Source of the DNA: Opitutales bacterium
GTDB lineage: Bacteria > Verrucomicrobiota > Verrucomicrobiia > Opitutales > Intestinicryptomonadaceae
Direction: 5' to 3'
Assembly: GCA_044433115.1 (NCBI GenBank)
Contig: JAWXTY010000019.1
Coordinates: 5,695-37,694 of the forward strand
Length of the DNA: 32,000 nucleotides
Shown here: piece by piece, positions 1,648-30,199 of the stretch
Layout: every line of letters begins with the position of its first letter
Numbering within the stretch: position 1 is the first letter of the stretch
Notes under the pieces: model-generated
What the model saw: only the letters and a program-made list of their open reading frames with translations
Told to the model about the DNA's origin: nothing
Database searches by the model: none
Made by a program: the position numbers and the translations under genes

Positions 1648-3212
1648 ACAATATTTTCAATAATTTAACAGATATAATTTGCCTAAAGGGGAAAGCTCTG
1701 CACTTTGCTGACTCCAAGGGGGCGTATAGGGTATTTAATACTACAAGTTTGGCAAAGGTACTAAAGGCTAAAAAGGTATCTAACGATAAGTCTATGCCAG
1801 TAAGGTCGCTTTTGGCAGATAGTAGGAGACTAACTCAAGGGGCTGTGTTTTTTGCTGTAAAGGGCTTTAATTGCGATGGTAATTCTTATATAGAAGAGGC
1901 AATACATAGAGGGGCTGTTGCTATAGTTTCCGAAAACCCTGCTCCAAAGATTTGCCCTACAACTTGGATACAAGTGGAAAATATCGCTATAGCAAAGGCA
2001 ATGGCTGCAAAAGTTTTCTATGAAAACCCAGATGAAACGCTAGATACTTACGCAATTACAGGCACAAATGGCAAAACTAGCGTATCTTGGATTATAAAGC
2101 ATATATTAAACTCTCTCGACAACAAGTGTGGCTTAATTGGAACTATACTCTACGACTTGGGAAATAGGTGCTTACCTTCTGGTAGGACTACTCCTGATGC
2201 CTTGGAATTATATGCCCTAATGTATCAAATGAAGGCTAATCAGTGCAAGAGCGTAGTGCTTGAAGCAAGTTCGCACGCATTAGAGCAAATGCGTATTAAG
2301 GACTTAGCCCTTGACTGTGCGATATTTACAAACCTAACTCAAGACCACATAGACTATCATAAGACTATGCAAGAGTACTTCAAGTGTAAGGAAATGCTAT
2401 TTCACGGAAGTGTTTGCAAAATGCCTAAGACTGCTGTTATTAATATAGACGACCCAAAGGGCTTAGAGTTGATTAATACTATAGATAAATCTATAAAAAC
2501 AACAACTTATGCCATTGATAATGCAGATGCTACGCTAGTTGCAAAAAACCTAAAACTAAGCTCTCAAAGCTCTACTTTCGATTTAACATACGAAGGAAAA
2601 ACTATAGAAAATATCACTATACAAATGGCTGGTAGATACAATGTTATGAATACTCTTTGTGCCTTAAGTGCTATTTATGCAAGGGGCTTTAACTTAGAGA
2701 AAGCTACAAGGTGCTTAAGTGAATTTAAGGGAGTGCCAGGGCGTATGCAAAGGGTAAAGAGCAAGGCTAATTTCGATGTATTTATAGACTATGCCCACAC
2801 TGACGACGCTTTGAAAAACGGCTTATCTATGCTAAGAGAAGTTACTAAGGGAAAGCTACTTGTGGTATTTGGCTGTGGTGGCAAAAGAGATAGGACAAAG
2901 AGACCTAAAATGCTAAGAGTCGTTCAAGAATATGCAGATATTGCTTGGGCTACTTCTGATAACCCTCGTGGCGAAGACATAAATCAAATTTTCGATGATA
3001 TGAGAGAAGGGATAATCTATCCAGATAAAATATCTTTCATAGAAAATAGAAGGCGTGCAATAAATTTAGCCTTGTCAGAAGCCCAAGAAGGCGATTGTAT
3101 ACTTATTGCAGGTAAAGGACACGAAACTTTCCAAGAACTAAAAGATACCATAATTCCTTTCGACGACACTAAAGTTACTGAAGAATTATTGGAACTAAAA
3201 GAACTAAGATAA
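1644..3212 (+). CDS. murE: UDP-N-acetylmuramoyl-L-alanyl-D-glutamate--2,6-diaminopimelate ligase
   Basis: Mur ligase P-loop ITGTNGKTS; DNPR motif (TSDNPRGED) typical of meso-DAP-adding MurE. Position after ftsI. The ORF track starts at a TTG (1629), but the ATG at 1644 forms an ATGA overlap with the ftsI stop and is the likelier start. Confidence 0.9.
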   Translation: MNNIFNNLTDIICLKGKALHFADSKGAYRVFNTTSLAKVLKAKKVSNDKSMPVRSLLADSRRLTQGAVFFAVKGFNCDGNSYIEEAIHRGAVAIVSENPAPKICPTTWIQVENIAIAKAMAAKVFYENPDETLDTYAITGTNGKTSVSWIIKHILNSLDNKCGLIGTILYDLGNRCLPSGRTTPDALELYALMYQMKANQCKSVVLEASSHALEQMRIKDLALDCAIFTNLTQDHIDYHKTMQEYFKCKEMLFHGSVCKMPKTAVINIDDPKGLELINTIDKSIKTTTYAIDNADATLVAKNLKLSSQSSTFDLTYEGKTIENITIQMAGRYNVMNTLCALSAIYARGFNLEKATRCLSEFKGVPGRMQRVKSKANFDVFIDYAHTDDALKNGLSMLREVTKGKLLVVFGCGGKRDRTKRPKMLRVVQEYADIAWATSDNPRGEDINQIFDDMREGIIYPDKISFIENRRRAINLALSEAQEGDCILIAGKGHETFQELKDTIIPFDDTKVTEELLELKELR

Positions 3213-3245
3213 AAAAATTTAATACAAGAATTTAATATAAAAAAT

Positions 3246-4841
3246 ATGCCTTTCTTTAAAACACAAGATATAAAAATATGGACAAACGGCACTTGGCTAA
3301 ACTTAGCTAAGGACTTTAACCTAAAAAGCTTTAGCACAGACACTAGAAGCCTCAACAAAGGCGATACTTTTGTATGTATAAACGCCCAAAGAGATGGACA
3401 CGATTTCGCTAAAGATGCAGAAAGTGCAGGAGCAAATGCGATTATAACTCAAAGAGAATTAGAGGGTATAACTATACCTCAACTAGTTGTAGCAGATACA
3501 TTGCTTGCCCTACAAAATATAGCAAAATTCCATAGGCTACGCTTTGAATTTCCAGTCTTAGCTGTAACTGGCTCTTGTGGCAAAAGCACTACAAAGGAAA
3601 GCTTAGCTAAAATTTTGTCTTGGAAAAATCCATCTTATACTGAGAAGAATTACAATAACGAAATTGGTGTTGCCCTAAGTATACTTAAGAGCGATTTGAA
3701 GTTCAACAAGCTTGCAATCATTGAAGCAGGAGTCGCTGCCCAAGGGCAAATGTCTGAGCTTGCAACTATGATTGAACCTGACTTAGTTGTAGTTACAAAT
3801 ATTGCACCTGCTCACCTAGATGGCTTTGTAGACATTGCCTCTGTAGCAAAAGAAAAGGCTCTTTTAGCCGAGAATTGTGCTATAGGTGGCTTTTGCGTTA
3901 TGCACTCTAACTTGTTGTCTTGGAAGGCTTTTGATGAGCTTAAATGTAAGAAGGCAGTGGCAATACCTATGGACGCTCCAGACGTTAAGGCAGACTTAGC
4001 TTTTAGGTATAAAATAAACTATAACGAGAGCGATATTAACATTGAGCTTTGCCTAGAAGGTGGTAATGAATACTATTTTGAGATGCCTATTACAAGTAAG
4101 GGTAACGCTGAAAATATGGTATTGGTAATTATCGCAAGCCTTATGCTTGGGGCAAAGGAAGAGTTGATTTTAAGTGGATTGCAACGTTTGCAAAACTTGG
4201 GTATGCGTAACTTATTCATAGAAAAAGATGACGTTAAATTATTTGTAGATTGCTACAATGCAAACCCAGCTTCTATGAAAGACTCTCTCGACTTTTTTGA
4301 AGTGAAATCGGCTCAGGCAACTAATAGACATTTCCTAATAGGACCTATGGCTGACTTAGGTATTGCTTCAATACGCCTACACAAGGATATTGCCTCTTAT
4401 ATCAAAAGAAAAGAAGGCGATAAAGTTGTAATTATTGGAGACACCCAAGATTTATATAAGTCTAGCCTACTAGAAGCTGGTTGGGCAGAAGAAGACATAA
4501 GTATCTTTAATACTTCCGAAGAAGCCCAAGGCTATTTAAGCGAAGCTAAAGGACATATATTTTTAAAAGCAAGTAGGAAATACGAGCTTGAAAAGGCTAT
4601 TCCTCAAGAGTTCTTTATGAGCCAAGAAGAGCTTGAAAAGCTCGCTAAAGAAAAGGCTCAAGAAGAAGTCGAAGAGCCTCAAGAGGAATATAAAGAAGAA
4701 AAGCCTAAGAAGAAAAACAAAAAAGGCAAAAAAGCAAAGATAGAAGAAGATGAAGGTGAAGAATTTCCAGAAGATTTCGACGACGAAGACTTCATTGAGC
4801 GTATAGATGTAGATAGAGAAGAACATTCAAGATTTGAATAA
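3246..4841 (+). CDS. murF: UDP-N-acetylmuramoyl-tripeptide--D-alanyl-D-alanine ligase with a ~73-aa highly charged C-terminal extension
   Basis: Mur ligase P-loop VTGSCGKSTTKE. The C-terminal LKASRKYELEKAI matches the usual MurF end (xxKGSRxxxxExxx). Position between murE and mraY. Residues 459-531 are an extra E/K/D-rich tail. Confidence 0.88.
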   Translation: MPFFKTQDIKIWTNGTWLNLAKDFNLKSFSTDTRSLNKGDTFVCINAQRDGHDFAKDAESAGANAIITQRELEGITIPQLVVADTLLALQNIAKFHRLRFEFPVLAVTGSCGKSTTKESLAKILSWKNPSYTEKNYNNEIGVALSILKSDLKFNKLAIIEAGVAAQGQMSELATMIEPDLVVVTNIAPAHLDGFVDIASVAKEKALLAENCAIGGFCVMHSNLLSWKAFDELKCKKAVAIPMDAPDVKADLAFRYKINYNESDINIELCLEGGNEYYFEMPITSKGNAENMVLVIIASLMLGAKEELILSGLQRLQNLGMRNLFIEKDDVKLFVDCYNANPASMKDSLDFFEVKSAQATNRHFLIGPMADLGIASIRLHKDIASYIKRKEGDKVVIIGDTQDLYKSSLLEAGWAEEDISIFNTSEEAQGYLSEAKGHIFLKASRKYELEKAIPQEFFMSQEELEKLAKEKAQEEVEEPQEEYKEEKPKKKNKKGKKAKIEEDEGEEFPEDFDDEDFIERIDVDREEHSRFE

Positions 4842-4843
4842 AA

Positions 4844-5941
4844 ATGCTAGAATATCTATCAACTTACGAAGATATATTTGGTCCTTTTAGACTCTTTGGC
4901 TCATTGACATTTAGATGTATAATGGCAGGGGCTTTTGCTGCGATAATTGCATTTATGATAGCCCCTCGCTTAATTAGCTACTTAAAGGAACTTAAGTTTA
5001 ATCAATTTTTAAGAACCCAAGAAGAAGTTGGCGAACTCGCTATTTTGCATAAGGATAAAGTGGGAACTCCTACTATGGGAGGCTTGATGATTTTTGCGTC
5101 CTTGACTATATCCACCCTCCTTTGGGCTAAGCTAAATACTCTAATTGTCGTTTCGCTTTTTGTATATATAAGCTTAACGATTTTAGGCTTTTTAGACGAC
5201 TACTTAAAGATAGCGAAAAACAATAGTGCAGGAGTTAGTGGCAAAATCAAAATGCTAGTTCAGCTACTTGTGGCTATTGGGGCAGTTTGCATATTAAAAT
5301 TCAGCGACTATGCTTATATAGTTGAGTCTTTGTATTTGCCATTTTTCAAAAGTCCAGTTTTAACTTCCATTCCATTTTGGGCTTTGATTATAGGCTTTTT
5401 CTTTGTGATTGCAGGCTCTAGCAATGCAGTAAATTTGACAGATGGAGTAGATGGCTTGGCTATAGGTTGCACAATCAGCGTGGCTTTAACTTATGGCGTA
5501 TTTGCCTACATAACAGGGCATATGGTAGCAGCTCAATACTTGCTTTTACCTTATATTGCAGGCAGTGGCGAGCTTTGCGTTTTGTTATCTGCTCTTCTTG
5601 GGGCAAGCTTTGCCTTTTTGTGGTATAATGCTCACCCTGCTTCTATATTTATGGGAGATACTGGCTCATTGGCTATAGGGGGTTTAATAGGGGTAGTTGC
5701 AATACTTGTAGCTCAACCTGCGACTCTAGTTATAGTTGGAGGCATCTTCGTATTAGAGACTATTTCTGTAATCATTCAAAGGTATTATTACAAGGCTACA
5801 AAGAAGAGATTTTTTAAATGTGCTCCTGTTCATCATCACTTTGAAAGAAGTGGCTGGAAAGAGACACAAGTTGTAATTAGATTTTGGCTATTATCATTAA
5901 TATTTGCCCTACTTGGGCTTGCGACACTAAAGTTAAGATAA
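4844..5941 (+). CDS. mraY: Phospho-N-acetylmuramoyl-pentapeptide transferase
   Basis: Polytopic membrane protein with the MraY motifs NAVNLTDGVDGLA and PVHHHFE. dcw synteny. Confidence 0.93.
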   Translation: MLEYLSTYEDIFGPFRLFGSLTFRCIMAGAFAAIIAFMIAPRLISYLKELKFNQFLRTQEEVGELAILHKDKVGTPTMGGLMIFASLTISTLLWAKLNTLIVVSLFVYISLTILGFLDDYLKIAKNNSAGVSGKIKMLVQLLVAIGAVCILKFSDYAYIVESLYLPFFKSPVLTSIPFWALIIGFFFVIAGSSNAVNLTDGVDGLAIGCTISVALTYGVFAYITGHMVAAQYLLLPYIAGSGELCVLLSALLGASFAFLWYNAHPASIFMGDTGSLAIGGLIGVVAILVAQPATLVIVGGIFVLETISVIIQRYYYKATKKRFFKCAPVHHHFERSGWKETQVVIRFWLLSLIFALLGLATLKLR

Positions 5942-7173
5942 TGAAAGATAAAGTTTTAGAGTTATCAAAAAATAAGAAAGTAGCTCTCTTTGGCAAGGGA
6001 GTTAGTACTCTTAGTGCAAAAAAGCTCTTGGACTTTTTAGAAATCGACTCAGTTTTTTATAGCCCAGACGACGAAGAATTTAATCAAGACAAAGCTCAAA
6101 ATCACGCCCTAGTTATATATTCACCCTCATTTAAGCAAAGTCATACTTACTTAGAAATTGCTAGAGAAAATGGGACAACTTGCCTATGCGAGTCAGACTT
6201 TTCTGCCCTACTTTGGCAAGGCGAGATTATTGCAATTAGTGGCACAAATGGCAAAACCACAAGCACAAGTTTCTTATGTCATTGCTTAAACAATCTTGGG
6301 CAAAAGGCTGTTGAAGCTGGCAATATTGGAACTCCACTTTCTGAACATTGTGTTAATTTAGAGAATTTTGGCAAGGGCGTTACTGCTGTATACGAGCTTA
6401 GCTCCTTTCAGCTAATGGACACAAAATATATAGAGCCTAAGGCGTATATTTGGACAAATTTCGATGAGGATCACCTTGACTGGCATAGCTCTATGTTGGA
6501 GTATTTTGAGGCGAAGCTAAAATTGGCAAAGCACACAGATATATTTTTAGTTGGGCGTTCTGTGGAGGAATACGCAAAGTTATATTCAAAGGACTTGCCT
6601 GCTTATACGCAAATTATAGATAGGCAAAACGCCCCTGCCCCTTTTGATAATAATATACAAAACGAGAATTACTCACTTGTTAAAGCTCTCTTAAAGAAGC
6701 TTGGATTTGATATAGAAAAACTTAGCAAAATAGCAAGCACTTTCAAATTTGCTAAATACAGATTTTCAAAGAGCCTTGAGCTAAATGGAATAAGTTTTTA
6801 TAACGACTCGAAAGCTACGAACACTCACGCAACTATAGCTGCACTAAATAGCTTCGAAAACGAGCTAATTTGGATAGGTGGAGGCAAAAATAAGCACTGC
6901 GATTTAGGCAAATTAGCCGATTTATTAGCAAAGAAGGCAAAACTATCTATTTTAATGGGAGAAAGTGCAAAAAATCTTAAAGATTTGCTCGACAAAAGAG
7001 GGGCAAAAGCTAAGATAGTATATAATTTAAATGAAGCTGTAAAAATTGCTTACGAAAATGCTAAAAATGGGGATAATATTCTATTTAGCCCAAGTTTTTC
7101 TAGCTTTGGAATGTTCGCTAATTACATAGATAGAGGAAATTGCTTTGAAAGAGAAATCCTTAGCTTAAAATAA
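5941..7173 (+). CDS. murD: UDP-N-acetylmuramoylalanine--D-glutamate ligase
   Basis: P-loop ISGTNGKTTSTS; synteny after mraY. The ATG at 5941 (MKDKVLEL) overlaps the mraY stop as TAATG. The ORF-track start at 5884 lies inside mraY and is unlikely. Confidence 0.88.
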   Translation: MKDKVLELSKNKKVALFGKGVSTLSAKKLLDFLEIDSVFYSPDDEEFNQDKAQNHALVIYSPSFKQSHTYLEIARENGTTCLCESDFSALLWQGEIIAISGTNGKTTSTSFLCHCLNNLGQKAVEAGNIGTPLSEHCVNLENFGKGVTAVYELSSFQLMDTKYIEPKAYIWTNFDEDHLDWHSSMLEYFEAKLKLAKHTDIFLVGRSVEEYAKLYSKDLPAYTQIIDRQNAPAPFDNNIQNENYSLVKALLKKLGFDIEKLSKIASTFKFAKYRFSKSLELNGISFYNDSKATNTHATIAALNSFENELIWIGGGKNKHCDLGKLADLLAKKAKLSILMGESAKNLKDLLDKRGAKAKIVYNLNEAVKIAYENAKNGDNILFSPSFSSFGMFANYIDRGNCFEREILSLK

Positions 7174-7215
7174 ATAATTTAAACAAAATTTAAAACTTAA
7201 AAAAGAGATATAGAT

Positions 7216-8325
7216 ATGAAAAACATAATGACATTTAGTACTATAATTGCAGTTCACGTGGTAGCTTTTATTATGATAGCTGTACAACCTGCTTGCACTT
7301 CAACTAAGGATAGCCCTAATAAAGCTCCTAGCAAAAAGAATGCTCCTCAAGCCAAGCAAGCAAACAATACTGAAGTTTTAAGCATAGAAGAACTCCCAGA
7401 AGGTAGCCCTGCTTTGAGAGCTGCTCCTTCAAGACCTGCTTGGACGCTCGATGCCAACAAGAAAAGCCAAGGCGAAGTTCTTGTAAACGAAGAAAACCAA
7501 GCCCCAACTTCTGGTCTATTAATGCCAACTGAGCTAGACTCTAAAGTTGAAGTTGATAGTCTTGTTAAAGACTCTGCTATGACTGAAACTTATGTAGTTA
7601 AAGCAGGCGATAATCTAACTAAAATCGCTAAGGCTAACAAGACTACTCTAAGTGCAATCAAAGATTTAAACAATCTAAAGAATAACAATATTTATGTTGG
7701 TCAAAAATTGAAAATTCCTGCTCCTAGCGAAAGCTCTAGCATAGTTCCTCAAAAGCCATTGACAACAAAAGCTGTTGACTCTAAAAATGTATATGTAGTT
7801 AAGTCTGGCGACTCTCTATCTAAGGTTGCAGCACAAAACAAAACTACAATTTCTGCTATCAAAGAATTAAATGCTTTGAAAAACGACGTGATTTTTGTTG
7901 GTCAAAAATTAAAATTGCCTGAGGCTTCTAAGGTAGTATCTGCCCCTGCACAAGCTCCAAAGAGTAGCGATAATTACGAAACTTACACTATCAAGCGTGG
8001 CGACACTCTTGGTGCGATTGCTCTAGCAAATAAAATTAGCTTAGCTAAGATACAAAAACTTAACCCTTCTGTAAACCCTAATAAGTTGCAAGTTGGTCAA
8101 GTTATAGTAATTAATGAAAAGCCTCTAGCTCCTACAGTTTCTCAAGACAAAGCTCCAGTAGTTAATCTAACTCCAGCAAGCACTCCTGCTCCTGTGGTTG
8201 AGCCAACTCCTGTAGTAGTTCCAACTCCTGCTCCAGACTTGACTCCAAAAGTTGAAGAAAAAGCACCTGTAGTTGAGCCTGCACCAGAGCCTACTGTAGA
8301 AGAAATCAATATTTTAACTATATAA
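7216..8325 (+). CDS. Membrane-anchored or lipoprotein-like protein with three LysM peptidoglycan-binding repeats and a Pro-rich C-terminus; no recognisable catalytic domain
   Basis: N-terminal hydrophobic segment FSTIIAVHVVAFIMIAVQPAC. Three ~43-aa LysM repeats (YVVKAGDNLTKIAKANKTTLSAIKDLNNL...VGQKLKIP; YVVKSGDSLSKVAAQNKTTISAIKELNAL...VGQKLKLP; YTIKRGDTLGAIALANKISLAKIQKLNP...VGQVIVI) at nt 7591-7719, 7792-7920 and 7984-8112. PxP-rich tail. Confidence 0.85.
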   Translation: MKNIMTFSTIIAVHVVAFIMIAVQPACTSTKDSPNKAPSKKNAPQAKQANNTEVLSIEELPEGSPALRAAPSRPAWTLDANKKSQGEVLVNEENQAPTSGLLMPTELDSKVEVDSLVKDSAMTETYVVKAGDNLTKIAKANKTTLSAIKDLNNLKNNNIYVGQKLKIPAPSESSSIVPQKPLTTKAVDSKNVYVVKSGDSLSKVAAQNKTTISAIKELNALKNDVIFVGQKLKLPEASKVVSAPAQAPKSSDNYETYTIKRGDTLGAIALANKISLAKIQKLNPSVNPNKLQVGQVIVINEKPLAPTVSQDKAPVVNLTPASTPAPVVEPTPVVVPTPAPDLTPKVEEKAPVVEPAPEPTVEEINILTI

Positions 8326-8335
8326 TTTAGAGATA

Positions 8336-9466
8336 ATGGCTAAAAAAAAAGCTGAGCACTTTGGGTTTTTTAGCTCTTGGATTACAGTTTTAATACCTGT
8401 CATTTTCCTAACAGGCTTAGGGCTTTTAACCCTAATTAGTGCAGCATCTTATGCAGAGAATACTTTGATGTTTTTCGACAAACAAGCAAAGTGGCTCGTC
8501 CTTGCTGTGCTAATGTCTATAGGGGCAGCGTTTATAAATTTAGAAATACTCAAAAAGTGCTTTTGGGTATTTTTACTTTTATCTATACCCCTGCTCATAG
8601 TAGTTTTAATACCTCAACTAGTAGAGCCTATCAATGGAGCAAGACGCTGGATAAAAATAGGCTCATACACTATTCAGCCTAGCGAATTTTCAAAAATTGC
8701 CCTAGTTATTACTATGGCGTTTTACCTACAAAAAAACCAACGCTATATAAAGACTTTCTGGCGTGGGCTAATTTTCCCATTGTGCATATTTGGAATGTTT
8801 TCTGCTTTAATTATCTTAGAACCAGACTATGGAACTTCGGTACTTTGTGCTATAGTTGGGCTTTCTCTATTATTTTTAGCAGGCACAAAATTTATATATC
8901 TAGTAGGAACGTGCATATTGGGATTTTTGGGCTTGGCTGTTATGATATTTTTAAACCCAGTTCGCTGGGCAAGGCTAATTAGTTTTACAGACGTAGAAGC
9001 GAATAAACTTGAGGGGACTTATCAGCTAAACCAAGCCCTAACTGGCTTTGGAGCTGGTGGAATTAGTGGTGCAGGTCTTGGACAAGGTAGCCAACAGCAA
9101 TACTTTTTACCTGAGGCACACACAGACTTTATCTTTGCAATAGTGGGCGAAGAGCTTGGACTATTAATGACACTATCTGTGGTTTTCGCCTTCTTTTTCC
9201 TATTTGTATACGTATGCACAAAGCTAAAATATGCACAAAATCTCTTTGAATTATACCTTGCTATAGGGGCGATGTTGATGATTGTTATGCAGTCTATATT
9301 CAATATGGGAGTTGTTACTGGCTTGTTCCCAACGAAGGGTATATCGCTACCTTTTGTCAGCTATGGGGGGTCGAACTTGGTTGTGATGTTTGTCTTTGTG
9401 GGACTAATTTTAAATTGTCTACGAAGTTGGCGTAACCCTCAACAAATAAAGGCTAAAGAACTATGA
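8336..9466 (+). CDS. ftsW: SEDS-family peptidoglycan polymerase FtsW
   Basis: Polytopic membrane protein with SEDS motifs PEAHTDFIFA and LPFVSYGGSN. Located between murD and murG. Confidence 0.9.
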   Translation: MAKKKAEHFGFFSSWITVLIPVIFLTGLGLLTLISAASYAENTLMFFDKQAKWLVLAVLMSIGAAFINLEILKKCFWVFLLLSIPLLIVVLIPQLVEPINGARRWIKIGSYTIQPSEFSKIALVITMAFYLQKNQRYIKTFWRGLIFPLCIFGMFSALIILEPDYGTSVLCAIVGLSLLFLAGTKFIYLVGTCILGFLGLAVMIFLNPVRWARLISFTDVEANKLEGTYQLNQALTGFGAGGISGAGLGQGSQQQYFLPEAHTDFIFAIVGEELGLLMTLSVVFAFFFLFVYVCTKLKYAQNLFELYLAIGAMLMIVMQSIFNMGVVTGLFPTKGISLPFVSYGGSNLVVMFVFVGLILNCLRSWRNPQQIKAKEL

Positions 9467-10554
9467 GTAATTTTGTAATTTCCTGTGGAGGAACTGGAGG
9501 GCATTTAGTGCCAGGTATAGCTATAGGAGAGGCTCTTATAGCTAAGGGGCATAATGTAATTTTTGTAATTAGCAAAAAGGATATAGATTCCAAGATTGCA
9601 GAAAAATACCCACGCTTAGAGTTTGTAAAAGTAAATAGTAGCCCCTTTTCGCTAAATCCAATTAAGGCACTAAAATTTTTATACAACTTATACTTGGGAT
9701 TTTTGGACGCAAAAACTTTGATAAAATTTAGAGATTGCAAAGTCGCTATAGCATTTGGAGGCTTTAATTCTTTGCCAATTTCGCTCGCTTCAAAATTCTT
9801 AAAGCGACACTTAGTTCTGCACGAGTCTAATATGAAAGTTGGCAAATCTATAAGGGTCTTAGGGCATATTGCAGATAAAATTTACATACCCCATGGGGCG
9901 AATATCAATAGAAAAAAGAATAGCATTGTAAAGCACGCAGGCTATCCTATACGTAAGGAAATTAAACGCTTAGACAAGACGACATCTAAGGAAAAATTTG
10001 GCTTTGCTTCTTATGAAAAAGTACTCTTAGTTGTAGGTGGAAGTCAAGGAGCTGTTGCCCTAAATAAGTTTGTAGATAGCAATATAGAAAAATTCAAGAC
10101 AGACGATATTTCAGTTTTATGCGTATGTGGGGCTAATTATAGCAACACAGATAGCATTGAATATCTAGGATCAGATGGCAAAACTCGACATATCAAAAAA
10201 ATGGTCTTTTGTTCAGATATGGCAAGTGCCTTGTCTTGCTGTGAGGTGGTTATAGCAAGGTCTGGAGCTGGCTCTATAGCAGAGTTTGCAAAGTGCAAAG
10301 TGCCTTCGATTTTAGTGCCTCTACCTACTTCTGCAGACGACCATCAAAAGGCAAATGCCCTAAAGGTAGAACGTTTGGGAGCTTGCATAATGCTAGAGCA
10401 AAAAAATATATCAAAGCTCTACGATGAGACATTCAATTTATTCTTCAACAAGAACTTAAAGCATATTATGAAAGATAATCTAACTCGTATAGATGAAATG
10501 AATAATATCAATGATATGCTCAAAGAAATTGAAGCAATAGCACAAGGTAAATAA
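9463..10554 (+). CDS. murG: UDP-N-acetylglucosamine--N-acetylmuramyl-(pentapeptide) pyrophosphoryl-undecaprenol GlcNAc transferase
   Basis: N-terminal GGTGGH motif (SCGGTGGHLVPGIAIGEAL); central GGSQGA. 4-nt overlap with ftsW. Synteny. Confidence 0.9.
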   Translation: MSNFVISCGGTGGHLVPGIAIGEALIAKGHNVIFVISKKDIDSKIAEKYPRLEFVKVNSSPFSLNPIKALKFLYNLYLGFLDAKTLIKFRDCKVAIAFGGFNSLPISLASKFLKRHLVLHESNMKVGKSIRVLGHIADKIYIPHGANINRKKNSIVKHAGYPIRKEIKRLDKTTSKEKFGFASYEKVLLVVGGSQGAVALNKFVDSNIEKFKTDDISVLCVCGANYSNTDSIEYLGSDGKTRHIKKMVFCSDMASALSCCEVVIARSGAGSIAEFAKCKVPSILVPLPTSADDHQKANALKVERLGACIMLEQKNISKLYDETFNLFFNKNLKHIMKDNLTRIDEMNNINDMLKEIEAIAQGK

Positions 10555-10555
10555 A

Positions 10556-11767
10556 GTGAAAAGTTATTATCTTGGAGGTATATGTGGTATGGGAATGACG
10601 CCCCTTGCCCTATTGTTGAAAAACGAAAACACAAAGGTTTTTGGTTTTGATAACTGCCCAAATCCTGAGATTGTGAGTATGCTTAAAGCTAATGATATTG
10701 AGGTATTTGCAGATTACGACCCCTCGCTAAATTTCGATAGCTTCATCATAACTACTGCTATGCTAAATAGGGATTTTAAAGGGCAAGCTTTCACGCAAAG
10801 AGGGCAAGCTTTTGCAGAGTTTTGTGCTACAAGAAAGCTTGTAGCTATAGTTGGCAGCCACGGCAAAACTAGCGTTACAAATATGTGCAGTTACCTTATA
10901 AATTCTAAAGAGGACTGCGATATTGGCTATATGCTTGGGGCTATGCCTTGCGGGGATTATTTGCCTGCTAAAACTTGCACGCAAGGCTCGTATATATTAG
11001 CTGAAATCGACGAAAGCGACGCTACTATAGAGAACTTTTCGCCTGAAATCTGCTGTGCTTTAAACTTTGATTTAGACCACACTAATACTTATGCAAACAA
11101 GGCTGATTTGCTGGCTATGTTCGAGCGTCTTTTTGATAGAACTAAGGGCAAAATCCTAGTTCCTAAAAACTCTAAAGAGCTATGCCTCTTGGCTGAAAAT
11201 TCTGCCAAAGACTACCTTATTGTAGAGACAGATAACACTGATTTTGACAGCTTTAATAAGTCTATTGCAAGTGCCTTAATGGGGGTAGTTTTCGATGAAG
11301 AGCTAAGCGTAAATTCGCTTAAAAATTTTAAAGGCACAAAGCGTAGACAAGAAATTCTTTTAGAAAATGACAAGCTCATTGCCCTTGCAGACTATGCTCA
11401 TCACCCAAGCGAAGTTGAAGCATTTTTCAAGTGGCTTAACGCAAAGCAAAGTGCAAAAAAGATTATATTTTTCCAGCCTCATAGATACACGAGAACTAAG
11501 CAATTTCACGAGACCTTTAAGAATATTTTGCTCAAGCAATGCAAAAATAATTCTAAAATTTACCTACTGCCTGTGTATGCTGCAAGCGAAACTTTCGATG
11601 CAAACGCAAGCTCTGAGCTAATCACTCAAGGCACTTGCCTCGAGCTAATTGCTTTAGAGGACATGAAAGATACTATAAATAAAGAACTAAAAGAGGCTAA
11701 TGAGAAAGTTTGCCTTGCATTTGTAGGGGCTGGAGATGTATATTTTAAGGCGAAAGATTTATTATGA
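10556..11767 (+). CDS. murC: UDP-N-acetylmuramate--L-alanine ligase (short, 403 aa; GTG start)
   Basis: GICGMGM Rossmann motif, GSHGKTSVT P-loop, AEIDESD, DYAHHPSE and FQPHRYTRT. The last two favour MurC over Mpl. Synteny. Confidence 0.85.
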   Translation: MKSYYLGGICGMGMTPLALLLKNENTKVFGFDNCPNPEIVSMLKANDIEVFADYDPSLNFDSFIITTAMLNRDFKGQAFTQRGQAFAEFCATRKLVAIVGSHGKTSVTNMCSYLINSKEDCDIGYMLGAMPCGDYLPAKTCTQGSYILAEIDESDATIENFSPEICCALNFDLDHTNTYANKADLLAMFERLFDRTKGKILVPKNSKELCLLAENSAKDYLIVETDNTDFDSFNKSIASALMGVVFDEELSVNSLKNFKGTKRRQEILLENDKLIALADYAHHPSEVEAFFKWLNAKQSAKKIIFFQPHRYTRTKQFHETFKNILLKQCKNNSKIYLLPVYAASETFDANASSELITQGTCLELIALEDMKDTINKELKEANEKVCLAFVGAGDVYFKAKDLL

Positions 11768-12678
11768 AAGATTTAAAAATTATAGTTTTATGTGGAGGAA
11801 TTTCTCCTGAACGAGATGTGTCTCTTGTCAGTGGCGACTACCTTGCTAAAGCTTTGTCGAAGTTCTACTCTGTAGAAAAAATTATCCTAGAAGAGAATAA
11901 AATACCAGCAAATTTAGACCCAAAAACTTGCATAGTTCACCCTGTGCTACACGGCGAATACGGCGAAAATGGCGACTTGCAAAAAGACCTTGAAGACGCT
12001 GGAATTACTTATGTAGGCTCTAATTCTTTGTCGAGCAAGTTGTGTATGTTAAAGCCTGCGACTAAAGCTTTTATAAGAAATGTTGGGGTAAAAACTGCAA
12101 AGGAATTTATTTTTGATAAAAGCGACAAAATCTCTGCAAAAGCCCTAAGAGAAAGCCTTGGCGATAGAATAATTATCAAGCCTGCAGACAAAGGCTCTAG
12201 CGTTGGGCTAAGCTTTTGCGACTCTTTAGAAAAGCTAGAAATTGCATTACAAAACTTGCCAGAAGGCGAGTGCTTAGCTGAGAGCTATTTTGAAGGTAGA
12301 GAGCTATCTGTGGGCGTACTCGGTGGCGAAGTTACTGGTATTGTGGAAATTGCACCAGCTGAGGGCTTGTATGATTACGAGACAAAATACAATGCAACTG
12401 ACACAAAATATACCTGCCCTGCTCTATTAGATAAGGAAATTGAAAGCCAAATTAAAGAGGCTGCACTCAAGATTTTTAATATTTGCCAATGTAGAGACTT
12501 TGCCCGAATTGACTTTATTGTAAAGGGAAAGGACTTCATTTGCCTTGAAGTGAACACTCTACCTGGAATGACACCTTCAAGTTTATTGCCAAAAACTGCA
12601 ACTTGTGTAGGTTTAGACTTTGACAATCTCTGTAAAAAAATGCTATCTTATGCTATAGAAAGACATAAGAATAAATAA
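11764..12678 (+). CDS. ddl: D-alanine--D-alanine ligase
   Basis: HGEYGENG and EVNTLPGMT ATP-grasp motifs. 4-nt overlap with murC. Precedes ftsQ. Confidence 0.9.
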   Translation: MKDLKIIVLCGGISPERDVSLVSGDYLAKALSKFYSVEKIILEENKIPANLDPKTCIVHPVLHGEYGENGDLQKDLEDAGITYVGSNSLSSKLCMLKPATKAFIRNVGVKTAKEFIFDKSDKISAKALRESLGDRIIIKPADKGSSVGLSFCDSLEKLEIALQNLPEGECLAESYFEGRELSVGVLGGEVTGIVEIAPAEGLYDYETKYNATDTKYTCPALLDKEIESQIKEAALKIFNICQCRDFARIDFIVKGKDFICLEVNTLPGMTPSSLLPKTATCVGLDFDNLCKKMLSYAIERHKNK

Positions 12679-12681
12679 ACA

Positions 12682-13548
12682 ATGCCAAAAGAAGTCCAAA
12701 AGCCAAAGACTTGGAAAGACTTAAAAGTATCAAGCAAAATAGAAAAACCTAGATTGAGTTTTTACGCTAGGTTAAAGATTTTCTTTGTGTATATAAAATA
12801 CTCTATTGTCTTTGCACTCCTTGTCTGCATAGCTCTTGGGCTTTATGTTTTGTATAAGACTGAAACTATAGATAAGTACATACAAAACGACTCGCAAAAA
12901 ATTAAGAATTTTCTCTTTGAAGAAGATAAAAATATCACAGGAAAGTGGCTCTGGGACTTCACTCAACTAAGGGCAAATACGCCCCTTGATGCCATTGATA
13001 TATTTGAGATAAAGCAACGTATCGAGCGACTCAATCAAATTGATAGCGTAAAAATAGAAAAGATTTATCCTGACACCCTCAAGGTTTCTATAGAGGAAAA
13101 AGACTGTATTGCAAAGACTTACAGCAATGACAAGCTACTTATAATGTCGAGCAAAGGCGAGTTTTACGAACCTATATGCCTGAGCCAAGAGCTTCTTTCG
13201 ACTCTAATTGAGCTATCCGACTTAAAAATAGAAACTAAGGGCGAAAAGTATCTTCCTTTCGACAAAGCACCTATGCTTAAAGAGCTTTTATTTATCGCCA
13301 CAAATGCCGATGGGGTTGATTTTAGTTCTTGGCAAAAAATAAATATGAAAAAAGCAAATTATCTAGTTGAACCTCTTATGGAAATTCATACTATAGATGA
13401 TATGAAAATTATATTTTCATTTGGCAACTACAAAGAACAACTTTTAAAACTAAAGGCTACTTTGGAATTTAGCAAAAAAAATGCAGTGCGATTTGAGCAA
13501 ATAGACTTGTCGCTAAAGGATAGAGCAGACGTAAAACTTAAAGAATAA
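12682..13548 (+). CDS. ftsQ: Cell division protein FtsQ/DivIB-like (single TM plus POTRA)
   Basis: Basic N-terminus and one TM (IVFALLVCIALGLYVLY). POTRA-like IKQRIERLNQIDSVKIEKIYPDTLKVSIEEKDCIA. Position between ddl and ftsA. The sequence is otherwise divergent. Confidence 0.75.
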   Translation: MPKEVQKPKTWKDLKVSSKIEKPRLSFYARLKIFFVYIKYSIVFALLVCIALGLYVLYKTETIDKYIQNDSQKIKNFLFEEDKNITGKWLWDFTQLRANTPLDAIDIFEIKQRIERLNQIDSVKIEKIYPDTLKVSIEEKDCIAKTYSNDKLLIMSSKGEFYEPICLSQELLSTLIELSDLKIETKGEKYLPFDKAPMLKELLFIATNADGVDFSSWQKINMKKANYLVEPLMEIHTIDDMKIIFSFGNYKEQLLKLKATLEFSKKNAVRFEQIDLSLKDRADVKLKE

Positions 13549-13550
13549 TT

Positions 13551-14744
13551 ATGAACGAAAGCAAGATTGTTACAGCGATTGACATAGCAAATTCAAAAGT
13601 GCAAGTTTTTGTAGGTGAGATAGTTGACAGAAGAGAGCTAAGAATTATATCTGCTGGCAATACGCATAGTTTTGGTATAAAAAAATCGAATATTTTGGAT
13701 ATTCAAGCCTTGTCGAAATCTGTAGAAGAAGCAATTTTAAAGGCTGAAAAGCGTATAAAAATAGACAATTCTAAGGTGTATATATCTATGAGTGGCTCGC
13801 ACTTAGAGGGTATGAAAAGCCTTGGCTCTGCAAATATAAGAAGTGCAGATAATGTTGTTTCTCAAGAAGATATAAAAAGAGCAAACGCTGACGCAATGTC
13901 GAAAACTCTCCCTGAGGATAGAACTTTTATCAATATGATTAATTGTGGATATTACCTCGATGGCGAATTTTGCCAAGAGCCACTAGGCAAGATTGCAAAC
14001 AGAATTGACGCAGAATATTGGCTAGTTCACGGCGATTGCGACGAGATTGCTAAAATCGTTTCTGTTTTGAAAAATTTAGATATAGAAGCTGACGAGCTTG
14101 TGTTGTCGTCCATTGCGTCGGCTCTTGCAGTGAGTACTAAAAACGACAGAAATGAGGGCGTACTTGTCATAGATATAGGGGCAGGAACGACTGATTATGT
14201 GATATATAAGAACTCAAAAGTCTCAATTACAGGCTCTATAAGCGTTGGAGGCGAGCATATCACAAACGACTTAGCTCACGGAATTAGGCTTTGCCAAAAG
14301 AATGCCGAAAAGCTTAAAAAAGTGTCGAAGGCGACTATGCAAGAAGACGAGCGTAAGGGGACAACTTGGGCTTTAGGCGATAAGCAAATTGGTGATAGGA
14401 AAGTGCCTCTAAAGGCTATAAATACTATAATTAAAGCACGCCTTGAAGAGACTTTCTTGCTAGTAAGAGATGAGCTGGCAAATAACTTAAATGCTGATAT
14501 ACAATGCGTTATACTCACAGGTGGCACTGCGAATATGCTGGGGATAACTGAAGTAGCCCAAGGTGTTTTCAACAAAAAGTGCATTGCTGATAAGTTTAAT
14601 TCAAACGTACACGAAACTTTTAGACGCAACGAACACGCAACTTGTATAGGCTTATTAAACTATGCCTTTGAAAGCGAAATACACGAAGCTCAAAGCATTG
14701 ATGGCGACAATCTATTCTCTAAAATCTTTAAGGTGTTTAAATAA
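13551..14744 (+). CDS. ftsA: Cell division protein FtsA (actin-like ATPase)
   Basis: Actin-fold phosphate motif VIDIGAGTTD and LTGGTANM. C-terminal amphipathic LFSKIFKVFK resembles a membrane-targeting helix. Synteny. Confidence 0.88.
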   Translation: MNESKIVTAIDIANSKVQVFVGEIVDRRELRIISAGNTHSFGIKKSNILDIQALSKSVEEAILKAEKRIKIDNSKVYISMSGSHLEGMKSLGSANIRSADNVVSQEDIKRANADAMSKTLPEDRTFINMINCGYYLDGEFCQEPLGKIANRIDAEYWLVHGDCDEIAKIVSVLKNLDIEADELVLSSIASALAVSTKNDRNEGVLVIDIGAGTTDYVIYKNSKVSITGSISVGGEHITNDLAHGIRLCQKNAEKLKKVSKATMQEDERKGTTWALGDKQIGDRKVPLKAINTIIKARLEETFLLVRDELANNLNADIQCVILTGGTANMLGITEVAQGVFNKKCIADKFNSNVHETFRRNEHATCIGLLNYAFESEIHEAQSIDGDNLFSKIFKVFK

Positions 14745-15490
14745 TGAGTGCGATATTTAAAAATATAAAAATGGTAGGCGTAGGCAAAGGCGGCACAAAG
14801 CTTGTTGAAAGGCTCACTGGCACTGTATTTAGTTCTATGCCAGCATTGGCTATATCTACAAATCAAGCAGACTTAGAGGAGTTGAAAATAAGAGAAAAAA
14901 TCTTAATTCCAAGAGAGGCAAAAAGCACTAAAGAGCAAGTAATTAAAATACGCAAAAGCATTCACTCTTATACTTGCGTGCTAATTTTCGCTCAATTTGG
15001 CGATGACAATTCTGCCCATCTCGCCCCTGCAATGGCGAATATTGCAAGCGATATGAACATAGAAAGCCTTGCGATTTGTTCTATAAGCAAGAAGCTTGAC
15101 AAATACGCAAGTGTTTCTGTACAAAAGCTTAAGCAACATTGCAAACATATTTTATGGCTTAGTAGCGATATGACTATAAGCGAAATTTTCAGCCAAAATG
15201 AGATACTAAGCTCCTTGGCTTTCCTTAGTGATATAGAAAAGCAAAACGCACTGCCAGCCCAAGAAGAAAGCCCTGCCGAACATAGGTCTTTCATAGATAA
15301 AATCATTGGCAGAAAGCCTAAAAAGCCTGAAGTTTTGAACGCCCAAGAAGTCTTAACCCAAGACGAGTTTGGCTTTAATACTCTATCTGAGCAACGTGGC
15401 TTTTTCCAGCATACGCCTCGAAATATGTATAATGGTATAGACTTAGATGTGCCAACTTATTTGCGTAAAAATTTAAAAATCCATTTATAA
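14744..15490 (+). CDS. Truncated, motif-degenerate FtsZ-like protein (N-terminal domain relic, linker and FtsZ-type C-terminal peptide)
   Basis: Occupies the ftsZ slot; its start overlaps the ftsA stop as TAATG. IKMVGVGKGGTKLVERL aligns with the FtsZ IKVIGVGGGGGNAVNRM. VLIFAQFGDDNSAHLAPAMANIA aligns with the VFITAGMGGGTGTGAAPVIA region, but the tubulin signature is lost. No T7/NxDxxD loop or C-terminal domain. C-terminal DLDVPTYLRKNL resembles the FtsZ conserved tail D(I/L)PxFLR(K/R). Confidence 0.65.
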   Translation: MSAIFKNIKMVGVGKGGTKLVERLTGTVFSSMPALAISTNQADLEELKIREKILIPREAKSTKEQVIKIRKSIHSYTCVLIFAQFGDDNSAHLAPAMANIASDMNIESLAICSISKKLDKYASVSVQKLKQHCKHILWLSSDMTISEIFSQNEILSSLAFLSDIEKQNALPAQEESPAEHRSFIDKIIGRKPKKPEVLNAQEVLTQDEFGFNTLSEQRGFFQHTPRNMYNGIDLDVPTYLRKNLKIHL

Positions 15491-15504: not shown

Positions 15505-15798
15505 ATGATAACACACTTTGTAGTAATGAGAACGCCTATGGGCAAAAATCAAAAAGAACTCTTAGAGGGGCTAAATACGCTTAAGGAAATTAAGGGCAAT
15601 TATAGCCTACACTTTGGTTGCCCTCTTGCTAGTGCAAGACCTGTAGTTGACGACACTTTTACTGTTGCTCTATCTCTAACTTGCGATAGCCAAGAGGCTC
15701 TAAGTGCTTATTTGGTAGACCCTATTCACGTGAAATTTGGCGAAAACTACCTCAAGAAATACGACGTAAAAATAACTGTATATGATGTTCAATCCTAA
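15505..15798 (+). CDS. Dabb (stress-responsive alpha/beta barrel) domain protein
   Basis: 97 aa. N-terminal MITHFVVMR and C-terminal DPIHVKFGENYLKKY fit the Dabb-family pattern (hydrophobic H-V-V start, HxxF late). Confidence 0.65.
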   Translation: MITHFVVMRTPMGKNQKELLEGLNTLKEIKGNYSLHFGCPLASARPVVDDTFTVALSLTCDSQEALSAYLVDPIHVKFGENYLKKYDVKITVYDVQS

Positions 15799-17158
15799 AG
15801 CTCAAAAAGCTGCTTTATATATAGCAGAACAAGTCGCAGCCTTAGGGGGCAAAGCTTACTATGTTGGTGGTTGCGTAAGAGACTCCATTCTCAACAAGGA
15901 AGCAAAAGATATTGATATTGAGATATTTGGGCTAGAAGCGAAAGATATTGAAAAGATTTTATCTAAGCGATTTAAGATAGAAAGCGTTGGCAAAAGCTTT
16001 GGAGTTTGGATACTTAAAGGCTATCAAATTGATGTATCTATGCCTCGCAAAGAGACAAAATCTGGCTTAGGGCATAAGTCTTTTGAGATAATTGGCGACC
16101 CATTTTTACCTGTAGAAGAAGCTTGTGCAAGGCGTGATTTCACTATAAATGCTATGCTTTGCGATATATTAACAGGCGAGATTATAGACTGTTATAATGG
16201 CAGGCAAGATATTCAAAATAAGGTACTTAGACATACTACAGACAAGTTTGTAGAAGACCCGCTTCGTGTGCTAAGAGCTATGCAGTTCGCTGCACGCTTC
16301 GACTTAGACGTCGCCCCTGAGACTGTAGAAATTTCTAAAACAATATCTATAGAAAACCTCCCAAAAGAACGCATATTCCAAGAGTGGAAAAAGCTTTTAT
16401 TAAAAGGCAACAAAATTTCTAAGGGGCTATTTTTCCTAAGAGACTGCAACTGGGTGAGATACTTCCCTGAATTGGCAGAACTAGTTGACTGCCCTCAAGA
16501 TGCAATCTGGCACCCCGAAGGCGATGTATACAGACACACTGCCTTTTGCTTAGACTCTTTTGCCAAAGACAGAATTGGCGACGAAAGAGAGGACTTGATT
16601 GTGGGGCTATCTATCCTTTGCCACGACTTGGGAAAGCCTAAGTGTACTGTAATTGAAGCAGATGGCAGGATACGCTCGCACGGACACGATATGGTAGGGG
16701 GTAAAGTTGCGAAGAAATTCCTCAAAAGCATAACTGACGAAAGAGCTATCATTGAAGAAGTTACACCTCTTGTTGAAAGACATATGGCTATACTTGACTT
16801 GTGGCGTAACAAGGCAGGCGATAGTGCAATAAGAAGACTTGCGAACAAAGTTAAGAGAATAGACAGGCTAATTCGTGTAGACAAGGCAGATAGAGAGGGT
16901 CGCCCTCCTATAATTGCCGAAGAGTCGCCTCAAGGGCAATGGATACTCGAAAGAGCAAACGAGCTTAAAATCAAAGACTCTGCTCCAAAGCCTATACTTA
17001 TGGGTAGGCACTTAATGGAGCTTGGGATTAAACCTAGTTTTCACTTTGGCAAGTACTTAGAAGAGTGCTATGAGGCTCAGCTAGATGGAAAGTTTTTCGA
17101 CCTAGAAGGGGCTATAAAGTACTTTAAGGAAAACGTAAAACTAGTAGAAATTCCTTAA
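15782..17158 (+). CDS. cca: CCA-adding tRNA nucleotidyltransferase / poly(A) polymerase family with HD domain
   Basis: YVGGCVRDSILNKEAKDIDIE (GGxVRD...DxD nucleotidyltransferase head), RRDFTINA, and the HD motif LCHDLGKP. Confidence 0.85.
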   Translation: MMFNPKAQKAALYIAEQVAALGGKAYYVGGCVRDSILNKEAKDIDIEIFGLEAKDIEKILSKRFKIESVGKSFGVWILKGYQIDVSMPRKETKSGLGHKSFEIIGDPFLPVEEACARRDFTINAMLCDILTGEIIDCYNGRQDIQNKVLRHTTDKFVEDPLRVLRAMQFAARFDLDVAPETVEISKTISIENLPKERIFQEWKKLLLKGNKISKGLFFLRDCNWVRYFPELAELVDCPQDAIWHPEGDVYRHTAFCLDSFAKDRIGDEREDLIVGLSILCHDLGKPKCTVIEADGRIRSHGHDMVGGKVAKKFLKSITDERAIIEEVTPLVERHMAILDLWRNKAGDSAIRRLANKVKRIDRLIRVDKADREGRPPIIAEESPQGQWILERANELKIKDSAPKPILMGRHLMELGIKPSFHFGKYLEECYEAQLDGKFFDLEGAIKYFKENVKLVEIP

Positions 17159-25211: not shown

Positions 25212-25245
25212 AAAATCCATTAAAGCAAAGCATAAACAAAAGAGC

Positions 25246-25303
25246 AAGCATATTTTTACACTAAAAAAGCGTCCCAAAAAAAAGAGACGCTTAAGTTAAG
25301 TTG
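25246..25303. repeat. Left copy of ~56-bp direct repeat bracketing the TA cassette (contains a terminator hairpin)
   Basis: AAGCATATTTTTACACTAAAAAAGCGTCCCAAAAAAAAGAGACGCTTAAGTTAAGTTG, versus 25988-26043 AAGCATATTTTTTATACTAAAAAAGCGTCCCAAAAAGAGACGCTTAAATTACGTTG. The copies differ by a few substitutions and indels. Confidence 0.8.
25263..25292 (-). terminator. Rho-independent terminator (minus strand) after the antitoxin gene
   Basis: On the minus strand: AAGCGTC-tcttttttttgg-GACGCTT followed by TTTT. Confidence 0.65.
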
Positions 25304-30013: not shown

Positions 30014-30199
30014 TTGTGCTAAGACCTCTGTCTAAATTTTGAGCTTTTATATATCTCTAAATGCTGTATTTTGCTTGGTTTATAGTTGCTTTATAGTTGC
30101 TTATATCTAAAATTTAGACACTTTTTGTATCTTAAAGAGATTTTATCTTTAGGCTCTTATATTATAAAGCTTGAAAAATTTATCTGCATAGGCGATAAT

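Follow-up and report, generated by a model that had tools for sequence, protein, structure and literature searches.

The locus and the gene in the ftsZ slot

We analysed 32,000 nucleotides (nt) of the Opitutales bacterium contig JAWXTY010000019.1 (the window; GC content 37 %), whose first 17 kb hold, on the + strand, a single co-oriented dcw (division and cell wall) cluster. In the slot of ftsZ, directly after ftsA, this cluster carries a gene for a protein of 248 amino acids (aa), recorded in GenBank as MFI3291383.1, 'MAG: hypothetical protein R3Y46_05820 [Opitutales bacterium]' (MAG, metagenome-assembled genome). This gene, here called short ftsZ, descends from ftsZ and is under purifying selection, and we infer that its product is a pseudo-GTPase that does not polymerise and acts through FtsA. 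The 3' part of the cluster reads as follows.

12682..13548, + strand: ftsQ, 288 aa, POTRA domain (PF08478, E = 1.8e-7)
13551..14744, + strand: ftsA, 397 aa (TIGR01174, 254 bits against a cutoff of 176, full length; PF14450 and PF02491)
14730..14735, + strand: Shine-Dalgarno-like site AAGGTG, within the end of ftsA, 8 nt 5' of the short-ftsZ ATG (sequence reading)
14744..15490, + strand: short ftsZ, 248 aa, with a degenerate FtsZ N-terminal domain (N-domain), a short linker and a conserved C-terminal module (list of open reading frames, ORFs; profiles; folds)
15505..15798, + strand: Dabb (stress-responsive A/B-barrel), 97 aa (PF07876, E = 2e-9)
15782..17158, + strand: CCA-adding/poly(A) polymerase family gene, starting inside Dabb and closing the co-oriented block (PF01743, E = 1e-20)

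The ATG of short ftsZ overlaps the stop codon of ftsA by one base (TAATG, 14742-14746). An initial annotation of this DNA had already reported this overlap in the ftsZ slot, correctly, and had placed the next gene 15 nt downstream; the distance is 14 nt, from the short-ftsZ stop to the ATG of Dabb at 15505. We found no terminator-like site between short ftsZ and Dabb, and no other-frame ORF of at least 40 aa on the + strand across the short-ftsZ region.

A word-indexed search of 5.8 billion proteins and a HMMER search run exhaustively over 1.84 billion cluster representatives recovered the short form as six 90 % clusters of 243-249 aa, the other five being 79, 66, 45, 39 and ~35 % identical to the window protein, and all six have the same architecture with common deletions and indels. 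A score gap sets this short family off, with its members at E <= 3e-93 and the next matches at E >= 6e-28; the latter are ordinary FtsZs, aligned through the tail and the N-domain, and no intermediates between the short form and ordinary FtsZ were seen among the matches listed.

Descent from FtsZ

The short protein descends from FtsZ. The NCBIfam ftsZ model TIGR00065 aligns with it at E = 7e-7 (residues 7-141 on model positions 19-172), FtsZ makes up 35 of 35 of its sequence matches in the PDB, and its HMMER relatives among the 1.84 billion cluster representatives are all either canonical FtsZs or members of the short family. In BLASTP against the FtsZ of Cerasicoccus arenae two segments align, residues 8-159 with FtsZ residues 20-190 (21 % identity, E = 2e-9) and residues 204-248 with the last 45 residues (25/45 identical, 56 %; E = 1e-14). 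Profile against profile, the short family and its full-length relatives match in hhalign with a probability of 99.7 % and E = 7e-27.

The predicted structure agrees with these matches. AlphaFold2 (AF2) gives a complete FtsZ N-terminal domain (S1-S6, H1-H6 and an H7 stub), followed by disorder until the tail.

14765..15247, + strand: FtsZ N-terminal nucleotide-binding-type fold, residues 8-168 (AF2, Foldseek, hhalign)

With a first model, built on an alignment that included canonical FtsZs, FtsZ occupied all 50 of the 50 top Foldseek matches in the PDB (best E = 3.8e-10). When the prediction was repeated with short-family sequences only, its confidence was higher (predicted local distance difference test, pLDDT, about 85-93 for residues 11-140), and the top 50 Foldseek matches were again all FtsZ (best E = 1.6e-8). 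The FtsZ alignments first made by eye are therefore above chance in the TIGR00065, PDB, BLASTP and hhalign comparisons, and the profile searches and fold comparisons that the initial annotation had proposed as checks both return FtsZ.

Although it is an FtsZ descendant, the short protein fails the tests by which the family is defined. Its TIGR00065 score of 28.8 bits lies far under the family cutoff of 295.2, its Pfam Tubulin (PF00091) score of 15.2 bits is below the gathering score of 33, and it lacks the signature motif, T3, T7 and the C-terminal domain.

Lost and altered elements of the GTPase and the polymer

The loops T1-T6 of the FtsZ N-domain hold GTP. In the short protein alignments place their remnants as follows.

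14777..14797, + strand: T1-loop remnant GVGKGGT (canonical GVGGAG-N)
14915..14920, + strand: junction of a 14-residue deletion that removes the T3 loop (canonical TRGLGAGGDPE-G), common to 6/6 short lineages
14996..15016, + strand: former tubulin signature T4, FGDDNSA for GGGTGSG
15080..15106, + strand: T5 remnant SISKKLDKY (canonical LPFxFEGxxR), 5 residues shorter
15158..15175, + strand: T6 remnant LSSDMT (canonical LPNDLL)

T1 of the window protein reads GVGKGGTK against a canonical GxGGxGxN, so that some glycines are kept and the conserved Asn is gone. The PND of T6 is retained whole in two lineages (P0003 and P0011) and appears as PNN in P0175 and PNS in P0012. At the T4 site the other five short lineages read FGDDFSA, FGSDTSA, FGGDKSA, FDDDKSV and FDNDKTV, and throughout the short family the replacement motif QF-D-S keeps the same four residues (Q84, F85, D88 and S90). 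Because the motif that replaced the signature is invariant in this family, it points to a new constrained role of the former nucleotide pocket, not to drift.

Homology to FtsZ ends in the first half of H7; the remainder of that helix is missing, as are the T7 loop, the C-terminal domain and ~100 linker residues. Pfam finds no FtsZ_C (PF12327) signal in the short protein. A tblastn search with five full-length FtsZs returned nothing for residues ~190-350 in any frame of the window and every related locus, and matched only for residues ~5-190 and ~350-462, that is, for the N-domain and for the linker end and tail. Since T1-T6 are altered or lost and T7 and the C-terminal domain are gone, we infer that the short protein should neither bind or hydrolyse GTP nor form protofilaments; head-to-tail protofilaments in particular would be precluded because nothing of the lower interface and only part of the upper one is left.

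The initial annotation had recognised the T1 region and had seen no equivalent of T3, no T7 loop and no C-terminal domain, all of which the alignments, Pfam and tblastn bear out, the T3 absence as the 14-residue deletion. The replacement of GGGTG(T/S)G by FGDDNSA also stands, at nt 14996-15016 and not at the 14993-15019 given there, and the shortening of T5 by 5 residues is an addition.

The linker and the C-terminal module

Past the N-domain the short protein consists of two segments.

15248..15352, + strand: short linker, residues 169-203, predicted disordered (pLDDT < 50; two AF2 runs, HMMER, alignment)
15353..15487, + strand: conserved Verrucomicrobial FtsZ C-terminal module, residues 204-248, QDEFGF..EQRGFF..RN.YNG.DLDVPTYLRKNLKI (BLASTP, family alignment)

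The deletion that took the C-terminal part of H7, T7, the C-terminal domain and linker maps to nt 15248..15352. The short linker contains a basic motif, RSFIDKIIGRKPKK (nt 15284-15325), whose counterpart is RSFFGFGRRKK at the linker end of FtsZ in the sister clade described below, and HMMER aligns residues 180-248 of the short protein with residues 395-462 of one such FtsZ, P0013. In P0013 and P0272 the linker ends in a conserved FFGFGRKKK, a motif that the short family keeps as FIDKIIGRKPKK.

FtsZs throughout Verrucomicrobiota carry the conserved 45-aa module, and in the six-cluster alignment the majority of family-invariant columns fall within it. It includes the core FtsA/ZipA-type peptide IDLDVPTYLRKNLKI (nt 15437-15481), and the C-terminal peptide of the short protein reads DLDVPTYLRK, for which binding is predicted from homology. 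An FtsZ-type C-terminal peptide had been noticed from the start, and it is there; the conserved unit is the 45-aa module, however, and not the terminal peptide alone. In Verrucomicrobium spinosum the C-terminal extension of FtsZ was essential in transposon-directed insertion-site sequencing (TraDIS; PMC12283558), and since the module is conserved phylum-wide as well, the tail is likely to be functionally important in Verrucomicrobiota.

Purifying selection on the short gene

The exact short protein is present on 11 contigs, and the 747-nt gene was read in five independent SRA assemblies, identical in four and with one base different in the fifth. The ratio of nonsynonymous to synonymous substitution (dN/dS, Nei-Gojobori) is 0.10-0.12 for the whole short ftsZ gene, 0.11-0.23 for its N-domain and 0.03-0.04 for its tail, in a comparison in which synonymous sites are saturated. 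The value for ftsA, 0.10, is about equal to that of short ftsZ, so that purifying selection acts with equal strength on both. The initial annotation had described the protein as an FtsZ-derived relic with decayed motifs, no C-terminal domain and an FtsA-type tail. Profile, fold, synteny and tail homology uphold every part of this description except the word relic, which is misleading because the protein is stable and selected, as seen in its presence in six lineages, its dN/dS of ~0.11 and its invariant replacement motif.

Orthology and evolutionary history

The comparison of orthologous dcw clusters suggested by the initial annotation shows the same short gene in the slot in six lineages and a full-length ftsZ in their sister clade. 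The short gene lies directly 3' of ftsA in 6/6 lineages, the window included. The order murC-ddl-ftsQ-ftsA-short ftsZ-Dabb-CCA is common to the five lineages with long enough contigs; the contig of the sixth (L007, 1.3 kb) holds the end of ftsA upstream of the short gene and an unidentified partial ORF downstream.

The full-length FtsZs most alike in tail and linker are those of the P0013/P0272/P0034 group, 450-462 aa long. Their ftsZ lies directly after ftsA in dcw clusters of other genomes, as does that of Cerasicoccus. In an FtsA tree (neighbour-joining, 391 columns, 200 bootstraps) the lineages with the short gene form one clade with 94 % bootstrap support, the P0013/P0034 clade (100 %) is its sister, and Cerasicoccus falls outside. 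Within the short-ftsZ clade FtsA identity goes down to 47 %, and GC content ranges from 36 to 49 %. The short gene is an ftsZ orthologue in one monophyletic Opitutales clade. We had also considered the P0013 group as hidden paralogues and rejected this view, since they occupy the dcw slot of a sister clade and are orthologues.

Most simply, the resident ftsZ was remodelled once, at the base of a family-level clade. Such an ancestral event would have removed the T3 loop, shortened T5, turned GGGTGSG into QFGDD-S and deleted ~220 residues, from the middle of H7 through T7 and the entire C-terminal domain, which serves GTPase activation and polymerisation, to most of the linker. FtsZ of the sister clade is already divergent, in that Pfam sees its Tubulin domain and mostly not FtsZ_C.

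The T3 region of the P0013 and P0272 proteins (L016 6001-7389 and L017 6001-7368) is shortened to ENGEGTGGD. Four further proteins (P0126, P0132, P0023 and P0059) are full-length FtsZs of Verrucomicrobia type with a DLDVPTYLR-type tail and altered signatures (GGNTGV, GGGIGS, GGETGG and GGATGS). FtsZ appears, from these sequences, to be unusually free to vary in Verrucomicrobiota, and among altered Verrucomicrobial FtsZs the short form seems to mark the far end of a trend. FtsZ-like proteins consisting of the N-domain only, with no Verrucomicrobial tail, were also seen: P0127 (207 aa, an intact GGGTG-type signature), P0139 (210 aa, GGRTG) and P0069 (199 aa, from a Selenomonadaceae MAG, GGKAASG). 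These could be stand-alone N-domain paralogues or truncated gene calls.

In all five short-ftsZ loci with a readable downstream gene (the window, L006, L011, L015 and L021), that gene is Dabb, and the overlapping CCA/poly(A) polymerase gene comes next, without a terminator. None of the relatives examined has Dabb after a full-length ftsZ; the genes that stand there in Cerasicoccus and the sister clade are convergent and unrelated. The 3' boundary of the cluster changed together with the truncation of ftsZ, and a functional link between Dabb and short FtsZ is possible. Dabb was considered as a split-off FtsZ C-terminal domain and rejected, being a genuine PF07876 protein.

FtsA and the proposed mode of action

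The partner FtsA had been described as having an intact ATPase motif and membrane helix. This agrees with its TIGR01174 score of 254 bits, with actin-fold motifs that are largely intact (DIGAGTTD and LTGGTANMLG) and with a C-terminal amphipathic helix, LFSKIFKVFK. Its phosphate-1 motif (residues 9-16) reads AIDIANSK in the window lineage and ALEIGT(S/G)K in relatives, the canonical Asp of DxG being Glu in most of this Opitutales group.

Translational coupling would let the short protein be synthesised along with FtsA. Its retained parts are a folded N-domain, a short basic linker and the 45-aa module ending in the FtsA-docking peptide. By analogy with FtsZ tails, this tail may dock on membrane-bound FtsA and so bring a GTP-blind N-domain to the divisome of FtsA, FtsQ, FtsW and FtsI, where it would serve as an adaptor or regulator instead of as part of a polymer. 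Were the short protein the only member of the FtsZ family in these cells, their division would do without an FtsZ polymer and be organised on FtsA as a scaffold. Taken as a whole, the explanation that we favour, at slightly better than an even chance, is that of an ftsZ orthologue whose product is GTP-dead and non-polymerising, docks on FtsA as an adaptor and is, more likely than not, the only FtsZ-family protein of the cell. Its broadest form, a whole peptidoglycan-walled Opitutales clade with no polymerising FtsZ, in which the sole tubulin-family protein is a GTPase-dead, FtsA-bound adaptor and cytokinesis runs on FtsA and FtsQ/W/I with no treadmilling Z-ring, we rate as evenly balanced.

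A second ftsZ and other explanations

We searched for a canonical ftsZ besides the short gene. No other ORF of at least 120 aa in the window encodes a tubulin-like protein, and tblastn for a hidden ftsZ found nothing in the window and ~130 kb of related loci. No second-copy candidate occurs among the matches listed (111 and 120, the latter from 560). An amino-acid composition screen of 355 proteins left 10 AT-rich FtsZs, which were checked by source and accession, and none of these is tied to the R3Y46 or SPI34 MAGs. A scan of a genome collection with the FtsA patterns FINMINC and MNESKI[VI]T, which are too specific, returned Bacteroidota FtsA loci only. Because the short gene occupies the ancestral slot, we incline, at even chances or a little above, to the short protein being the sole FtsZ homologue in these cells. 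Losses of FtsZ, two or more, in other lineages of the Planctomycetota-Verrucomicrobiota-Chlamydiota (PVC) superphylum (PMC12283558) speak for the same view.

Four points weigh against the explanation that we favour. A canonical ftsZ may lie elsewhere, since the searches covered the window, related loci and listed relatives rather than whole genomes. The PVC lineages without FtsZ lost FtsA too (PMC12283558), so that an FtsZ polymer could still be present here, where FtsA is strongly retained. The clear constraint on the N-domain and its new invariant pocket motif imply a function which the model does not specify. Finally, GTP binding, polymerisation and FtsA binding are each judged from motifs and homology.

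The first two of these points lead to the alternative that survives best, though we consider it unlikely: the short protein may be an accessory or regulatory paralogue that modulates a Z-ring built by a canonical FtsZ encoded outside the dcw cluster. It might do so by competing with FtsZ for the tail site on FtsA and on other tail-binding partners, or by binding FtsZ subunits, much as ARC3 or Agrobacterium FtsZ1 may serve as parallels. FtsZ-derived regulators do exist, ARC3, with its FtsZ-like domain, inhibiting Z-ring assembly directly, and over-expressed truncated FtsZ1 blocks division; the strong selection on FtsA would also fit a cell that still builds a Z-ring. This reading has against it that the short gene sits in the ancestral slot, the nearest full-length FtsZs being those in the sister clade's own slot, whereas described truncated FtsZ duplicates are the copies outside dcw, with the canonical copy inside (bioRxiv 10.1101/2025.09.29.679267). 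No second copy turned up among the matches listed or the AT-rich candidates checked, and with T3 and part of T5 deleted from the upper polymer interface the capping of FtsZ filaments is doubtful.

It is improbable that the protein binds nucleotide in a non-canonical manner, or self-assembles through N-domain/N-domain contacts, to give an unusual FtsA-tethered polymer. An N-domain fold predicted with high confidence by AF2 and constrained at a dN/dS of 0.11-0.23, a T1 with four glycines, a PND/PNN-type T6 in three of the six lineages (P0003, P0011, P0175) and the new invariant QF-D-S motif in the old pocket would all suit it, but acidic or bulky residues stand where the phosphate-binding signature had glycines, the gamma-phosphate sensor T3 has been deleted, and there is no T7 or C-terminal domain to complete the active site or the longitudinal contact.

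Still less credible is a split FtsZ, in which a C-terminal domain from a separate gene elsewhere re-associates with this N-domain. Oliva, Cordell and Löwe are said to have reported in 2004 that the two FtsZ domains fold independently, which speaks for it; the N-half should then keep its GTP-binding loops, however, and here they are destroyed, the tail sits on the N-half, and neither the window nor any related locus, out to 10 kb, has an FtsZ_C-like ORF.

A decaying pseudogene, or an assembly or frameshift artefact masking a full-length gene, might be suspected from the half-length ORF, the broken motifs and an annotation as merely a hypothetical protein, but is to all intents ruled out by one sequence on 11 contigs and in five independent SRA assemblies, an identical architecture, down to the same indels, across six lineages whose GC content spans 36-49 %, a dN/dS of ~0.11 with saturated synonymous sites, and a missing domain that leaves no remnant in any frame, so that the initial judgement against a simple frameshift holds and the assembly error it named as a risk is excluded.

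Comparison with known systems

The GTP-dead, FtsA-docked adaptor that we propose can be set beside several known systems. The canonical FtsZ of Opitutales and other Verrucomicrobiota (Cerasicoccus arenae, 432 aa; P0013/P0272/P0034) shares with the short protein its slot after ftsA, a homologous N-domain fold and the 45-aa module QDEFxF..RGFF..RN..G.DLDVPTYLR, and the sister clade shares the basic linker motif as well. The short protein differs from it in having no T3, GGGTGSG, full T5, second half of H7, T7 or C-terminal domain and in missing ~100 linker residues.

The truncated paralogues of Hyphomicrobiales, Agrobacterium FtsZ1 and FtsZ3, are likewise shortened, stably retained and thought to tune division. 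They keep the GTPase domain and lose the linker and C-terminal peptide, whereas the short protein does the reverse, and they are encoded outside dcw beside an essential canonical FtsZ, whereas short ftsZ lies in the dcw slot (bioRxiv 10.1101/2025.09.29.679267). ARC3 of plant chloroplasts, with FtsZ-like and MORN domains, is similar in principle as an FtsZ-derived domain that serves as a non-polymer division factor; it is, however, a eukaryotic multi-domain protein that has no FtsA-binding tail, acts on FtsZ1/FtsZ2 rings and has no recent common descent with the short protein. FtsZl1 (Makarova & Koonin 2010, PMC2875224) resembles the short protein in having an FtsZ-type N-domain that lacks the canonical T6-H7 and C-terminal domain, and its filaments are doubtful. 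It belongs to an old separate family in other operons and has a coiled coil and an alpha-helical C-terminal domain, whereas the short protein is predicted by AF2 to be disordered past residue 168 up to the FtsZ tail and has only genuine Verrucomicrobial FtsZs as its nearest relatives; we set the two apart by description.

The FtsZ-free division of Chlamydiota and Planctomycetota occurs in the same superphylum; like the state proposed here, it came about by giving up the ancestral role of FtsZ, with most of the peptidoglycan and other dcw genes retained. These phyla lost ftsZ and ftsA wholly (PMC12283558), in contrast to the short-ftsZ clade, which has intact ftsA, ftsQ, ftsW and ftsI and a selected FtsZ fragment. 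Recent surveys describe Verrucomicrobiota as keeping all dcw genes including ftsZ (PMC12283558), and full-text searches of the literature found no description of such a short FtsZ form in Verrucomicrobiota or elsewhere.

Other genes of the window

The remaining genes of the dcw cluster were assigned from NCBIfam/Pfam matches, and gene calls on identical Logan contigs cover the whole block 145..12678.

145-1647, + strand: ftsI-like penicillin-binding protein
1629-3212, + strand: murE
3246-4841, + strand: murF
4844-5941, + strand: mraY
5884-7173, + strand: murD
7216-8325, + strand: LysM-repeat protein, 369 aa
8336-9466, + strand: ftsW
9463-10554, + strand: murG
10556-11767, + strand: murC, weak score
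11764-12678, + strand: ddl

The LysM-repeat gene is inserted between murD and ftsW, and its place is conserved in short-ftsZ loci that are long enough (308-400 aa in L011 and L015). MurC of the window is short (403 aa) and matches TIGR01082 in two stretches at 177 bits against a cutoff of 335; in the loci compared with it (L016, L017, L020 and L019), MurC of the sister clade is likewise weak, at 407-413 aa, and Cerasicoccus has instead a MurC-MurB fusion of >723 aa. The window dcw cluster has no murB. Outside the cluster, a full-length 6S RNA lies at 28412-28602 on the - strand (Rfam RF00013, 52 bits, above the gathering score), and the ORFs at 24303-25277 (-), 30086-31447 (+) and 31506-31877 (-), of 324, 453 and 123 aa, have no Pfam match at E <= 1e-3.

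Implications for the loss of FtsZ

FtsZ is the near-universal organiser of bacterial division. How bacteria abandon it is an open question, and the question is sharpest in the PVC superphylum, where Chlamydiota and Planctomycetota lack FtsZ. The cases of FtsZ loss known to us are all end states, in which ftsZ and ftsA are both gone. The short-ftsZ clade presents an in-between state, with dcw and FtsA intact and with an ftsZ orthologue that has shed the parts for GTP-driven polymerisation while its tail and N-domain remain under selection. It may thus represent a surviving stage between division that relies on FtsZ and division without it.

Part of the interest of the finding depends on the status of ftsZ in the whole genome. 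If these cells have no polymerising FtsZ, they would be a living intermediate of the kind of FtsZ loss that lies behind the division modes of Chlamydiota and Planctomycetota, and if the short protein is their sole FtsZ homologue, FtsA-centred division with no Z-ring would exist in nature and be open to study. If a canonical copy lies elsewhere, the short protein would be a new type of FtsZ-derived division regulator, with an architecture inverse to that of the known truncated paralogues. Annotation pipelines label such genes 'hypothetical', so that surveys of ftsZ presence and absence will count these genomes among those lacking ftsZ. In either case, the clade would offer a natural experiment that separates the function of the FtsZ tail from that of the polymer.

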